A DNA stretch of 29,836 nt from a virus. The notes below the pieces were generated by a model that was not told where the DNA came from, did no database searches, and saw only the letters and a list, made by a program, of their open reading frames with translations. Shown here one piece after another: positions 1,273-14,269 of this stretch. Every line of letters starts with the position of its first letter. The stretch's first letter is position 1. The position numbers and the translations under genes were made by a program. Location: IMG/VR virus record IMGVR_UViG_2029527005_000013. One strand, 5' to 3'.

Positions 1273-1302
1273 TGTCTTTACTCCTTTGTGTGGTGTGGCT
1301 GC

Positions 1303-1331
1303 ATTGTGGCCCGGCGGGCCTGGTAAGTCAA
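1303..1331 (-). promoter_or_regulatory. sigma70-type promoter TTGACT-17-CACAAT
   Basis: Hexamers read directly; inverted repeat GGCCCG-C-CGGGCC in the spacer; AT-rich upstream. Confidence 0.7.
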
Positions 1332-1355
1332 CATAATTTTATTTTGTCGTGGGGA

Positions 1356-1384
1356 TTGACTAACCACCAGGCTTGATCAATAAT
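1356..1384 (+). promoter_or_regulatory. sigma70-type promoter TTGACT-17-AATAAT (divergent from 1303-1331)
   Basis: Hexamers and spacing read directly. Confidence 0.65.
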
Positions 1385-1412
1385 GAGGACTCAAGCAAAC
1401 GAGGATCAAACG

Positions 1413-1673
1413 ATGACCAATACAGAATTGTTAATGAAGGCGCTAGGCTGGCAAGGTGGCACCGTTCACCAGGTGGCACGGGAAACCGGGATCACGGTTT
1501 GCCAGGTCTTGGACCTGCATACTTTCGGGCATTGCGTTTACAATACCCCACGCCGCCGGGGATACCGGGACGCCAGCCAGGGCAAGATTGACGCCGCCCC
1601 GGCGGGGCTAGATACCAGTGAATTGATCTCTTATTGGTACGGCGTGATCCAATTCCACCGGGGATATTTTTAA
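1413..1673 (+). CDS. hypothetical protein (MTNTELLMKALGWQGGTVHQVA...)
   Basis: GAGGA RBS before ATG 1413; upstream promoter. Confidence 0.75.
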   Translation: MTNTELLMKALGWQGGTVHQVARETGITVCQVLDLHTFGHCVYNTPRRRGYRDASQGKIDAAPAGLDTSELISYWYGVIQFHRGYF

Positions 1674-1692
1674 ATTATTTTCGTGTGGGGTA

Positions 1693-1722
1693 TTGACGGC
1701 CCGGCGCAAGCTGGGCTATACT
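1693..1722 (+). promoter_or_regulatory. sigma70-type promoter TTGACG-18-TATACT with no conventional ORF downstream
   Basis: Near-consensus hexamers; spacer hairpin GCCCGGC-GCAA-GCTGGGC. Confidence 0.75.
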
Positions 1723-1728
1723 TCTATT

Positions 1729-1823
1729 AACAGGAGAAGAGACGCCACCCCACGGCGAAAAGGCGGGGCTAACGTACCGGGCACCGGGGCCAGGTCGGAA
1801 GGTGAATCGCCGGGAGTTCGTCC
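1729..1823 (+). ncRNA. candidate small structured RNA (or ACG-initiated/decayed micro-ORF 1742-1879)
   Basis: GC-rich ~95 nt directly after a strong promoter, no ATG ORF; possible H-type pseudoknot at 1743-1768. Confidence 0.35.
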
Positions 1824-1854
1824 AAAATAGTTTTGTAAAGAAACGTAAAGGCGC

Positions 1855-1883
1855 TTGCAACCTGGGCCGATTTGTTTAATAAT
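1855..1883 (+). promoter_or_regulatory. sigma70-type promoter TTGCAA-17-AATAAT
   Basis: Hexamers read directly; followed by ACACATAGCG, the same leader start found after promoter 472-500. Confidence 0.6.
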
Positions 1884-1885
1884 GT

Positions 1886-1944
1886 ACACATAGCGGGAAC
1901 AAAGAGACCGGAGTACAAAACACCGGGGGTGCCCGCTATTCTGC
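1886..1944 (+). ncRNA. candidate ~55-nt hairpin RNA
   Basis: ATAGCGGG(1890-1897)/CCCGCTAT(1932-1939) outer stem, CCGG/CCGG inner stem, A-rich loops, no RBS-led ORF. Confidence 0.35.
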
Positions 1945-2026
1945 AAATGCGAATGATTATCATTCACCTACCTAAATGCGAATCACTATCATTTCACTTC
2001 TCAAATGAGAATTATTCTCATTCCAC
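1945..2026. promoter_or_regulatory. three tandem Fur-box-like palindromes, 29-bp period
   Basis: AAATGCGAATGATTATCATT (1945), AAATGCGAATCACTATCATT (1974), AAATGAGAATTATTCTCATT (2003); compare Fur 9-1-9 consensus AATGATAATNATTATCATT. Confidence 0.7.
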
Positions 2027-2088
2027 TCCCGGCGCGGGGCGCTGGCCCACGTTTTCGATTTCAATTTGGAACGGCATCACTCTGCCAC

Positions 2089-2268
2089 GAATACGATTTC
2101 GATTTTGAAAATGAGATCGAGAACTCGATCGAGAAGTCGAGATCCGGCGCGAGAATACGATTGAGAAATTGAGATCGGGATCGAGAACCCGGTAGCCCTG
2201 TCGAGACCTCGCGCCCGGCAGCGGGCACAAGAATACGATCGGCAGAATGGAAAAGCGATCGAGAACTC
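2089..2268. repeat. GATC-rich dispersed repeat cluster (4x GATCGAGAA(C/G)(T/C)C, 3x GAATACGAT)
   Basis: 12-mers at 2115, 2127, 2179, 2257; 9-mers at 2089, 2153, 2231; seven GATC between 2115 and 2260. Confidence 0.8.
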
Positions 2269-2286
2269 AAAATTTTTGATTGGCCG

Positions 2287-2359
2287 TAACTCCATTAATG
2301 AGTAGCTTATGACTCATTAATGGGGCATAACTCTCTTAATGAGTGGTTTATGACTCATT
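2287..2359. repeat. direct repeat of a 32-bp palindrome-containing unit, 41-bp period
   Basis: TAACTCCATTAATGAGTAGCTTATGACTCATT (2287-2318) and TAACTCTCTTAATGAGTGGTTTATGACTCATT (2328-2359). Confidence 0.85.
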
Positions 2360-2442
2360 GCCTATGAAGGTTTGATGAGGTGTGTGGAAGTTTGTTCAAT
2401 CCATTTGATGATGATGTGCCTGTGCGTACACGCCTACCAGGT

Positions 2443-2542
2443 ATCTTGATTTCAATCTTGAATCTATTTTCAAATCGAAAACTGATTTCAAATCTCGGCG
2501 CAAATATCATGGCAAATATCAAATCGATTTTCGATCTGAAAA
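2443..2542. repeat. AT-rich low-complexity tract (TTTCAAATC, CAAATATC repeats), partly an inverted copy of 2097-2117
   Basis: 2462-2480 reverse-complements to TTTCGATTTGAAAATAGAT versus TTTCGATTTTGAAAATGAGAT at 2097-2117. Confidence 0.6.
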
Positions 2543-2567
2543 CTAAGCCGTCCTTGGCCCACAAATA

Positions 2568-3422
2568 TCAGAGGGCTACAGAGATGAAGTTACGTATGTC
2601 AATACCTGTCTTGGGTTTGTTGCTGACATAGTTCTTCTCTTGGTAGTCACGCAGGTATCGCAGGACTGTCCAGTCTGCGCCTGGGTGTAGCACATCAAAC
2701 AGGGCAATCTCTTCCTCCAATGGCTCTGCCCAGTTCTCAAAGTGAGACATGAAGTCTGTCACAGGCATGACAAAGGCCCCGGTCTTTTGTCGGGAGGGAT
2801 CTTTACTGCTGAGGACAATCTCATTGTCTCGGGTAAAGATCATGTGCCCAGGATTCCATTCGGAATCGAAACGCAGTACGCCACCAGAACAAGCCTTCAC
2901 ACTGAGACGGCCCATTGCATCATCCCGCAGGTAGCCGTGATACATATCATCGGTGCGGTAGCTTACCGTCATGAACTTCAGGGCATGGAAATTGTGGACA
3001 AACTGACCAACCTGATAACCGAACCAGGCGTGTGCAACGTCCTTCAGTGTCTTCGATGTTGGGAGATTCTCCTCCAGGCCCCCCTGTAATTTCTCCACAA
3101 AGGCGACCATCTCGTCCCGTGTCATGTTTTCCGGGTCCCACTCTTGGGTCAGTGAGGCACAGGCATCGCGTATACCACGGTGAAGCAGGTCGATGGTTTC
3201 GTAAGACTTCTCGACGTACATCTCCAGTTCGTTATCAAAGTCGAAGTCACTGGCGATACTGCTGATGTCGCTCGCCGCCTCGCTCCCTTCGTTCTCTGTA
3301 ATAGATTGCACGTCACCGAGACGCTTTGTCAGATCTTTGAAGTCGGGAACGGTTGGGCTTGGCCTTGCCCCACGGGCGTAGTCCATCACCCCGTGTAAGA
3401 ATATTGCATCAAATGAACTCAT
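2568..3422 (-). CDS. hypothetical protein, 284 aa, acidic
   Basis: Long ORF with AGGAG RBS; last gene of the leftward cluster. Confidence 0.85.
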   Translation of the reverse strand: MSSFDAIFLHGVMDYARGARPSPTVPDFKDLTKRLGDVQSITENEGSEAASDISSIASDFDFDNELEMYVEKSYETIDLLHRGIRDACASLTQEWDPENMTRDEMVAFVEKLQGGLEENLPTSKTLKDVAHAWFGYQVGQFVHNFHALKFMTVSYRTDDMYHGYLRDDAMGRLSVKACSGGVLRFDSEWNPGHMIFTRDNEIVLSSKDPSRQKTGAFVMPVTDFMSHFENWAEPLEEEIALFDVLHPGADWTVLRYLRDYQEKNYVSNKPKTGIDIRNFISVAL

Positions 3423-12894: not shown

Positions 12895-13049
12895 TCAGAT
12901 ACCACCTCTTCCCATTCCATATCGTCCAAGAAGCAGGACTCGCAGTCGTCATCAAACACAAAACGGCTGTCACCTGCACCATACACCTGATAATGCGTTT
13001 CAGCGCTGAACTTGTGGCCCAGCGGTGCATCCAGTACAATAATCCTCAT
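12891..13049 (-). CDS. 52-aa acidic small protein (MRIIVLDAPLGHKF...)
   Basis: Read manually; ATGA overlaps on both sides. Confidence 0.65.
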   Translation of the reverse strand: MRIIVLDAPLGHKFSAETHYQVYGAGDSRFVFDDDCESCFLDDMEWEEVVSE

Positions 13050-13606
13050 TTGAACATCCCCATGATGGTTCCAATTGCCCTTTTCTTACGCTGAACAAAG
13101 ATGTCACGAGGCTCAAAGGTTGCCATGTTTCCAGGATTGTCCTCGTGCCACTCGATCATCGTCTTAATTTGCATGTGCATTGTATGGTATTTCTTCATAC
13201 GCTGCAAGTCCTTTTCACGCAGACCTTTCAGGCGGCGGATGTCAGTGTTATGCCGGAGGTCAGCCAGTTTTACACGGCAGGCGTCGTAGCTCCACAGAAT
13301 CCCCTCCAAATATTCTTCGTGCGTTTGGAACTCAACTTTGGTCAGGCGGGTGATCCCGTCAATGACACGGTTGGAGATCCCGAGGCGTTCCAGGTCGCAC
13401 TGCTGCACCGGGGTGTCCTCGATCAGGTCGTGACCCACAGCGATACAGTTTAACTCGTCATCGTCCTTCTCCTTCAGGTAGTGCATTACCTTCAGTACGT
13501 GCAGGACATAAGGACGCCCACCCTTGTCGAACTGTTGTTGGTGGTGAGTAGCAGCCAGCTTGATCATCATCGCCAGTTGTTTTTCCGGGGAAAGTACCTT
13601 GTTCAT
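13046..13606 (-). CDS. HD-domain hydrolase of the Mesh1/SpoT (small alarmone hydrolase) type
   Basis: H..QFDKGGRPY..H, GHDLIEDT, LTK, VKLADLRHN motifs; AGGAG RBS before MNKVLS. Confidence 0.85.
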   Translation of the reverse strand: MNKVLSPEKQLAMMIKLAATHHQQQFDKGGRPYVLHVLKVMHYLKEKDDDELNCIAVGHDLIEDTPVQQCDLERLGISNRVIDGITRLTKVEFQTHEEYLEGILWSYDACRVKLADLRHNTDIRRLKGLREKDLQRMKKYHTMHMQIKTMIEWHEDNPGNMATFEPRDIFVQRKKRAIGTIMGMFK

Positions 13607-13637
13607 TTGTTGCTCCTGTTCATGAATTGTGAACGCC

Positions 13638-13666
13638 AATTTATCATGAACAAAAATACGATTCAA
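13638..13666 (-). promoter_or_regulatory. leftward promoter TTGAAT-17-TAAATT
   Basis: At the strand switch; long inverted repeat TGTTCATGA/TCATGAACA spans the -10 and leader. Confidence 0.55.
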
Positions 13667-13669
13667 GTA

Positions 13670-13698
13670 TTGATTTCTCGATCGAGTACCTGTATAGT
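13670..13698 (+). promoter_or_regulatory. rightward promoter TTGATT-17-TATAGT
   Basis: Back-to-back with the leftward promoter; palindrome CTCGATCGAG in the spacer. Confidence 0.65.
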
Positions 13699-13726
13699 CC
13701 ACTCATCAAATGACGAGGAGCACAAA

Positions 13727-14269
13727 ATGAAACTACGTGAACGCACTGAAGGACGGGAACAAGAGCATGTCGATGAAAGAGCCTACAAATTCTTTACCTA
13801 CGGATATTCCGGCGAATACAAATACCACTGGAAGAGTACGTCAGAGGGACTCCGCCCTACTGCTGTACTGGAGCACGGTCATTTCTACCCAGTATGCGCT
13901 TACTGCGGGCGACAGGCGCTGCCAATCCAAGGTGAAAGGAGAGCCTACTCCCCAATGGGGTCCACGTCATATTATGACAAAGGTCACTGCTGCGTGTGCA
14001 AAGATGCGATGGACGAGCTTGAGTGCAAGGATAAGGCAACCGAGATCCGGGAGAAAATGAACCGTCTCTTGGGCGAGTTGAATCAGGCAAAGCCGAAAGT
14101 AAACCCTGACGTTGTAGAGGCAATGATCAAGGAACGGGCCGAGAGCGACCTGAAAGAGCTAAATCGGAATAAAAAGCACAGTGCTTGGGGCATTTATCAC
14201 CAACTGGATAGTCTGGGTATTGCGTTGAAGAAAGAAAACAACCGTGAAGAGGAGTACGACGATGAGTAA
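13727..14269 (+). CDS. hypothetical Zn-binding protein (CAYC...CCVC) with coiled-coil
   Basis: GAGGAG RBS before MKLRER. Confidence 0.8.
   Translation: MKLRERTEGREQEHVDERAYKFFTYGYSGEYKYHWKSTSEGLRPTAVLEHGHFYPVCAYCGRQALPIQGERRAYSPMGSTSYYDKGHCCVCKDAMDELECKDKATEIREKMNRLLGELNQAKPKVNPDVVEAMIKERAESDLKELNRNKKHSAWGIYHQLDSLGIALKKENNREEEYDDE

Follow-up and report, generated by a model that had tools for sequence, protein, structure and literature searches.

In bacteriophage T5, an array of repeated boxes, beside the 7.9% nick and ahead of nine DRD repeats, is located inside Repeat Region 3, the region considered to contain the injection stop signal (Davison, bioRxiv 10.1101/866236). The mechanism of the injection stop was still called poorly understood as of 2026 (PMC13250531), and Fur was not mentioned in the T5 injection-stop literature that we found. 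Here, we describe a non-coding gap that carries a homologous box array in the virus record IMGVR_UViG_2029527005_000013 of IMG/VR. The gap is situated at positions 1,674–2,567 of a stretch of 29,836 nucleotides, hereafter called the window, which corresponds to bases 111,989–141,824 of the 152,940-bp record. The source of this DNA is an rV5-like, Certrevirus-type phage. To our knowledge, no replication origin has been mapped in the rV5-type large virulent phages, and their non-coding DNA is unannotated. The HIDEN-SEQ and rV5 genome papers make no mention of an origin.

Comparisons among phages suggest that the gap is a conserved cis-acting hub on which several proteins would assemble on the DNA. 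The original prediction, made from the sequence alone, had described it as an ordered landing pad for several DNA-binding proteins, some of them host-encoded, and this idea is well supported by the genomic context of Fur-like boxes in bacteria and by the strict geometry of a bipartite repeat. Tentatively, we favor the reading that the gap is a lytic replication origin, or one of several, which would be of the iteron type, activated by transcription and gated by the host repressor Fur.

Two kinds of described origins are similar to parts of the gap. Iteron-type origins, such as lambda ori and those of the P1, R6K and pSC101 plasmids, likewise contain several regularly spaced repeats in the same orientation with an AT-rich tract nearby, are entered by transcription and have an extra repeat copy that serves as a promoter operator. 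The gap differs from these in that no initiator gene and no DnaA boxes were found, in its 35-bp bipartite units and in its converging flanking genes. Transcript-primed origins (the T7 primary origin with its tandem promoters, T4 oriF and oriG, and ColE1 RNA II) share with the gap tandem promoters directed toward an AT-rich, easily melted segment and a G-rich transcript, whereas the gap has early promoters of the host sigma70 type and about 500 bp of putative protein-binding repeats before the AT-rich tract.

Anatomy and conservation of the gap

The gap is bordered by an open reading frame (ORF) on the plus strand that ends at 1673 and an ORF on the minus strand that ends at 2568, the flanking genes being convergent, and is located at 113.7–114.5 kb in the whole genome. 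The orthologous intervals of about 0.8–0.9 kb are annotated as intergenic in the relatives (phiTE_078/079, POP15_153/154, phi92 gp223/224 and Kashira 02290/02300), in agreement with the predicted ORF-poor block of about 0.9 kb between convergent genes. It had also been called the only large block of this kind. This holds within the window, where it is the largest gap, but not in the genome, where a larger gap of 1.2 kb is located 11 kb upstream. The ordered elements that had been listed were all present at 1674–2567:

1693..1722, plus strand: putative promoter P1, TTGACG-18-TATACT, with a GC-rich dyad in the spacer (10/12 match)
1729..1830, plus strand: RNA1, a nearly invariant non-coding element with its core at 1745–1773 (no Rfam family)
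1832..1851, plus strand: tandem TTGTAAAGA-type element immediately 5' of the P2 −35 hexamer (from the alignment)
1855..1883, plus strand: putative promoter P2, TTGCAA-17-AATAAT (9/12 match)
1890..1939, plus strand: RNA2 hairpin with a conserved loop of the GAGACAAACACC type
1945..2031, unstranded: three Fur-operator-like palindromic boxes in 29-bp phase, starting at 1945, 1974 and 2003 (from consensus match, bacterial context and T5 homology)
2047..2110, unstranded: left copies of a TTTCGATTTCAA-type repeat, inverted relative to 2454–2545 (from the repeat search)
2090..2124, plus strand: bipartite repeat 1, AATACGAT-N17-GATCGAGAAC (this and the next two from repeat comparison among phages)
2154..2188, plus strand: bipartite repeat 2
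2232..2266, plus strand: bipartite repeat 3
2276..2357, unstranded: two 41-nt palindrome cassettes, the palindrome arms of which change together between phages
2442..2545, unstranded: AT-rich tract of low stability with a 27-nt inverted repeat, 2467–2493/2516–2542 (from composition, repeat and stability scans)
2501..2569, unstranded: three CAAATATC motifs (2501, 2513 and 2562), kept in every lineage including Phapecoctavirus

A BLASTN search with 1600–2700 as the query retrieved 536 phage records. The whole interval could be aligned at 70–75% identity to Pectobacterium phages POP15, POP17 and POP18, Cronobacter phages CR3, CR8, CR9 and PBES 02, KaOmega and the F1M1E group, while in phiTE and CB7 it aligned as two pieces that cover about half of the interval at 81% identity. 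These relatives all belong to or group with Certrevirus in the Vequintavirinae. The alignment of the orthologous interval, which had been proposed as a check, demonstrated that the motifs are conserved across the relatives. The same order of neighbors, with a small gene on the plus strand, the gap and a gene on the minus strand, was observed in Certrevirus, Mydovirus, Kashira, phi92 and phAPEC8. The order of the elements and the synteny are kept across the Vequintavirinae, also between genera with diverged proteins, and in the Stephanstirmvirinae only the left half is retained. In Phapecoctavirus, the promoters, the RNAs, the boxes and the CAAATATC motifs are retained, and a different repeat family occupies the position of the bipartite repeats. 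This anatomy and its conservation are established. The module is the most conserved non-coding element of the rV5-type large virulent phages. Several records of 140–146 kb labeled as Campylobacter phages (e.g., MG065689 A110a and MG065672 A141) carry the rV5-like module along with other rV5-like sequence, and their host labels look doubtful.

The original prediction had placed two promoters in the left half, each driving a short structured transcript. P1 and P2 are predicted sigma70-type promoters with −35 and −10 hexamers that are retained across 17 aligned phages, drawn from two subfamilies, and seven promoter-like sites were observed in 1300–3000 as compared to 2.1 ± 1.6 in shuffled sequences. 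The sequence of the GC-rich dyad between the −35 and −10 hexamers of P1 varies between phages, with its symmetry retained. The RNA2 hairpin folds better than 200 of 200 shuffled sequences (z = −2.9), and three pairs of its outer stem have undergone compensatory changes that preserve the pairing around a conserved loop. The promoters and the RNA2 hairpin thus stand, but a structured RNA1 is not supported. This element of about 120 nt downstream of P1 has 66 invariant columns and is present in 231 phage records, and it is non-coding since the 3-, 5- and 6-nt indels in its variable hairpin are not all multiples of three. Its fold energy is no better than that of shuffled sequences (z = +0.97), only one or two pairs covary (AU:9/GC:8 at one pair), and the helices of a candidate pseudoknot never vary. 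A stable structured or pseudoknotted RNA is therefore not supported, and RNA1 is a conserved non-coding element rather than a proven structured RNA. No known RNAs were identified in the region with Rfam (at the gathering threshold and at E = 10) or ARAGORN, and a terminator scan revealed no plus-strand terminator after the P1/RNA1 and P2/RNA2 units. As candidates for small-RNA genes, the two units thus have putative promoters, with neither a plus-strand terminator nor an Rfam match found.

The tandem TTGTAAAGA-type motif adjoins the −35 hexamer of P2 on its upstream side in all aligned phages. An exact second copy of 24 nt is located on the minus strand at 102,725–102,748 of the genome, followed by a promoter-like site and with a Fur-like box 110 bp away. 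In one relative (L015, IMG/VR UViG 2974574029, at about 6.2–7.0 kb), a 0.7-kb insertion with an ORF of 197 amino acids, which by eye resembles a homing endonuclease, is located between RNA1 and the TTGTAAAGA-P2 unit. Since everything downstream of the insertion is intact, the RNA1 unit and the P2 unit are separable. In T5, an HNH gene likewise splits two repeat regions (Davison, bioRxiv 10.1101/866236).

Fur-like boxes in phages and bacterial genomes

The three Fur-like boxes named in the original prediction were confirmed as 29-nt repeats in which 15, 13 and 13 of the 19 positions match the 19-bp Fur consensus. In the relatives, one to four boxes are present, with up to 16 of 19 matches, and neither their 29-bp phase nor their distance from RNA2 varies. 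Genome-wide, 10 sites with at least 14 matches to the consensus were identified, as compared to about 1.8 in shuffled sequences.

We compared the boxes to bacterial genomes in two independent tests of genome context, both of which support the Fur reading. The first concerned the E. coli chromosome, where the best matches of a phAPEC8 box were located in the divergent promoter region of a cluster with a TonB-dependent receptor and a siderophore non-ribosomal peptide synthetase (NRPS), and upstream of fhuE. For the second, we looked for perfect matches to a 19-mer that is shared by T5 and these phages and from which each box in the window differs by one base. This 19-mer was recovered from more than 120 bacterial contigs of many phyla among the matches listed. 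The Pfam families most frequent in the 128 ORFs flanking it were the TonB-receptor Plug (13) and barrel (12), Cupredoxin_1 (5) and FUR (4), followed by metal-binding solute-binding proteins, TonB_C (3), FeoB (2) and Rubrerythrin (2), and this family list is that of the Fur regulon. The likeness to the chromosomal Fur operators of fhuE and the TonB-receptor/siderophore clusters is hereby established: 13–16 of the 19 consensus positions match, the palindrome is extended (AATGC...GCATT), and the identical 19-mer is found at promoters of the Fur regulon across many phyla. The boxes would thus behave like genuine Fur operators and bind Fur. They differ from the chromosomal operators by their presence in a virulent phage, their 29-bp phase and their position downstream of a putative promoter rather than over it. 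A BLAST search of one window box against E. coli genomes gave no matches, the query being too short for that database. In the chromosome of E. coli strain 005008 (L024, 2495–2530), a 25-bp palindrome nearly identical to the long box form of phAPEC8 and T5 is located between a gene for a TonB-dependent receptor and an MFS/NRPS siderophore cluster, and is likely a Fur operator.

Fur normally represses by covering the −35 and −10 elements. In P2, these elements are free of boxes, the first of which starts about 57 nt downstream of the P2 start, and classical repression of P2 is therefore not the obvious mode of action. With a threshold of 15 of 21 matches to the ideal palindrome, 12 Fur-like boxes were counted in the genome, spread over its early region. 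Six of the boxes are clustered in a second block at 100,537–101,150, 11 kb upstream of the window, in 1.2 kb of ORF-free, promoter-rich DNA. This block, which is newly described here, is conserved in the certreviruses POP15, phiTE, CR3 and CR8. It also contains a pair of 16-bp inverted repeats about 90 nt apart, and the GenBank record of PBES 02 ends inside the block.

With 1940–2560 as the query, about 150 T5-like siphophages were also recovered, each matching in the box array only. In T5 (AY587007, 9468–9637), the matching sequences are annotated as copies 1–4 of direct repeat C and as palindromes E, G and I. In pairwise BLAST, the matches of T5 extended over up to 31 nt in phAPEC8 (97% identity) and 33 nt in the window (88% identity), and the homology ends at the boxes. 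In both systems, tandem boxes are followed by lineage-specific direct repeats in a non-coding block of about 1 kb between early gene sets. However, where the gap has promoters and RNAs upstream of the boxes, T5 has paired DnaA boxes within the inverted repeats D' and C', and DRD repeats take the place of the bipartite ones. T5 also has a site-specific nick, and its region lies at the inner edge of a fixed terminal repeat, whereas the ends are permuted in the phage group studied here. The analogy to T5 has thus turned out to be better than a guess, with the homology limited to the boxes.

Because the T5 region to which the array is homologous spans the inner end of the terminal repeat, and since GATC-containing repeats recall the pac site of phage P1, the gap could be thought of as a packaging site, a genome-end boundary or a stop for DNA entry as in T5. 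We regard this as very unlikely. For the relatives CB7 and phiTE, circularly permuted genomes that lack fixed ends have been demonstrated by means of BAL-31 digestion, read depth and restriction mapping (PMC7344957, PMC3475682). TerL, at 45.2–45.9 kb in the genome, is 68 kb away from the gap, no end repeats were found in the record, and neither the DnaA-box inverted repeats nor the DRD repeats are shared with T5. Among the roles originally proposed, which were an origin, a terminal-repeat or packaging boundary and a DNA-entry checkpoint, those as a terminus and in DNA entry are thus disfavored by the permuted relatives and the distance to TerL, while that as an origin is plausible. The record PP357458 starts inside the region, but it is flagged as circular, and its start is not a physical end.

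Another function to be considered is that of a decoy, in which hundreds of replicated arrays would titrate the host Fur, as in FURTA, and de-repress iron uptake for the benefit of phage iron enzymes such as ribonucleotide reductase. The arrays of one to four phased boxes, the additional cluster of six and the predicted top grade of the boxes as Fur-type sites are consistent with this, and the titration of Fur by multicopy boxes is established (cited in PMC2189734). Yet, T5 has the same array and degrades the host DNA within minutes (10.64898/2026.04.02.716235), so that de-repression of the host cannot be the purpose of the array in T5, and a decoy would leave the fixed position and phase of the boxes beside P2 and the repeats unexplained. 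We consider a decoy function improbable.

It is possible, although we would not call it probable, that two unrelated groups of virulent enterobacterial phages, the T5-like siphophages and the rV5-like/phAPEC8-like myophages, have in common a cis-acting module of which host Fur is a functional component. Bound to the phased boxes, Fur would couple the iron status to a DNA transaction. This transaction would be the pause in DNA entry in T5, and the firing of an origin or early transcription into the repeats in the phage studied here. Fur would then be a concrete candidate host factor for the T5 injection stop, since the same array is located in the injection-stop region, the mechanism of which is poorly understood. 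If the boxes bind Fur, a lytic phage would read the iron state of its host through the host's own repressor, and we found no paper in the literature that says so.

Bipartite repeats in the gap and at a distant promoter

The right half of the gap had been described as a GATC repeat cluster, a duplicated palindrome cassette and an AT-rich tract that is partly an inverted copy of the left part. The GATC cluster is present, with seven of the eight sites of the region inside 2115–2257 as compared to 0.8 expected from the window density of 5.63 per kb (Poisson tail ~2e-5), but it resolves into three bipartite repeats, inside which it sits, and is a by-product of the repeat unit. The unit is 35 bp long and consists of AATACGAT, a 17-bp spacer and GATCGAGAAC, and the three units are spaced by 64 and 78 bp. 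We sampled ten phages of the Vequintavirinae that carry this repeat family, from Certrevirus, Seunavirus, Mydovirus, KNP2/BIS47 and Kashira. Exactly three 35-bp units with a 17-bp spacer and with spacings of 63–67 and 74–78 bp were observed in nine of them, the exception being phiTE, in which there is one full unit and otherwise only right half-sites, the left halves being degraded.

The palindrome cassette proved to be duplicated as described. The inverted copies were also recovered, with arms at 2051–2064/2469–2482 (93% identity) and 2090–2110/2467–2487 (76%), and the GC content is 0.377 over 2251–2550. The 100-bp segment starting at 2442, which is located 175 bp from the last bipartite repeat, ranks about sixth in the 152.9-kb genome for low stability (z = 3.4), with a far less stable site at about 55 kb. 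In KNP2, PVP-SE1 and Kashira, an additional promoter reads into the repeats.

A fourth copy of the bipartite repeat was identified 11.5 kb from the gap:

13655..13689, plus strand: solitary bipartite repeat inside a 121-bp divergent promoter region, overlapping a promoter-like site (TTGATT-17-TATAGT) and conserved in relatives

The divergent promoter region, 13607–13726, separates a minus-strand gene at 13049–13606, which resembles an HD-domain (p)ppGpp hydrolase, from a plus-strand gene at 13727–14269 (phrog_13698). The solitary repeat is conserved in phiTE, in other certreviruses and in some of the E. coli rV5-like phages, and about 3e-4 such bipartite matches are expected by chance per genome. 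This repeat, which had not been part of the prediction, is thus a distant operator, conserved in a divergent promoter. Since the solitary copy is conserved and overlaps a promoter, the bipartite repeats are recognized by a sequence-specific protein that is also active at a promoter. In iteron plasmids, an extra repeat at a promoter is used for the autoregulation of Rep. The 35-bp site provides a handle for fishing out the phage protein that binds to it. The product of phrog_13698 was rejected as this protein, because the gene is missing from Seunavirus, in which the repeats occur, and is found in phAPEC8-like and Pakpunavirus phages, in which they do not. The intergenic DNA at 13607–13726 is about 85% identical to that of the relatives. 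For the phrog_13698 protein, the identity does not exceed 50% even inside the genus.

Candidate origin or regulatory hub

If the gap is an origin, the host RNA polymerase would start at the early-type promoters P1 and P2 and read rightward, and about 57 nt past the P2 start the transcripts would meet the phased array of Fur operators. Beyond the boxes, they would reach three 35-bp sites for a phage DNA-binding protein, the two palindrome cassettes and the easily melted AT-rich tract, with the whole set bracketed by inverted repeats. The incoming transcription might activate or prime the origin, as at lambda ori, the T7 primary origin, T4 oriF/G or ColE1, and Fur with bound iron on the boxes could serve as a gate or roadblock for this transcription.

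Several features count in favor of an origin. Few stretches of the genome are less stable than the AT-rich tract, a GATC cluster is located inside three regularly spaced repeats, and both the order and the synteny of the elements are conserved. Further points are the additional promoter directed into the repeats in KNP2, PVP-SE1 and Kashira, the solitary repeat over a promoter and the likeness of the boxes to Fur operators. Likewise, the genes for the helicase and the primase are located 20–25 kb downstream of the gap, and the swap of the repeat family in Phapecoctavirus is the pattern that might be expected if an initiator were exchanged along with its sites.

Other results weigh against an origin at this position. 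From the cumulative GC skew and from a regression in which the effects of gene orientation and replication direction were separated, the skew was seen to follow gene orientation, with no replication-linked skew left once orientation was removed (at most 2.3% of the residual variance), and the skew analysis suggested with the original prediction thus provided no usable replication signal. Transcription converges on the gap instead of diverging from it. DnaA boxes are absent from 1675–2560, even with one mismatch allowed, and no initiator was found, the flanking proteins having no assigned family or fold and phrog_13698 not co-occurring with the repeats. A stronger melting site at about 55 kb in the genome coincides with the minimum of the cumulative skew and with a divergence of transcription. 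The homologous box array of T5 is situated in a region that is not regarded as an origin (Davison, bioRxiv 10.1101/866236), and the Fur boxes are not specific to an origin, since they are also clustered in the second non-coding block.

Second to the origin we rank a non-replicative regulatory hub and insulator at the point where transcription converges, which is possible but on the doubtful side. According to this explanation, P1 and P2 would produce small non-coding RNAs, and the Fur boxes and bipartite sites would be operators for the host Fur and a phage transcription factor. The module would stop, time or iron-tune early transcription, and prevent its collision with the leftward operon. 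This agrees with the operator role that the bipartite site has at a divergent promoter, the dispersal of the 12 Fur-like boxes over the early region, six of which belong to the second block of promoter-rich non-coding DNA, the extreme conservation of RNA1 and the separation of the RNA1 unit from the rest by the inserted gene, and P1 and P2 belong to the early promoter family of the phage (PMC7344957). However, about 500 bp with three operators, palindromes and an AT-rich tract would have no gene to regulate in Certrevirus, the boxes are located off the −35 and −10 elements, the putative small RNAs are not bounded by terminators, and RNA1 has no stability signal.

The two genes that flank the gap are both conserved:

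1413..1673, plus strand: small gene left of the gap, phrog_33408, with a weak helix-turn-helix lead and a syntenic plus-strand gene in phi92, Kashira and Mydo
2568..3422, minus strand: gene right of the gap, phrog_12463, with no fold or family lead

No function was obtained for the flanking proteins from Pfam, PHROGs, a sequence search of the PDB, a single-sequence AlphaFold model (pLDDT 39) or the ESM Atlas, and the weak lead for the small left gene is the sole clue among them.

We also considered the pseudo-ToxI antitoxin-mimic locus of phiTE as an identity for the gap, and rejected it because the escape locus at 106,714–106,772 in phiTE is 67 kb apart from the orthologous gap at 38,965–39,840 (PMC3475682). 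ToxI-like 36-nt repeats were not found in the gap.

The least stable DNA in the genome is located at about 55,000–55,200, with a dG of −101.6 per 100 bp as compared to a mean of −143, and contains three AGATCT-type repeats. Here, the leftward structural genes meet the rightward genes at the minimum of the cumulative GC skew, and this site is an alternative candidate for an origin.

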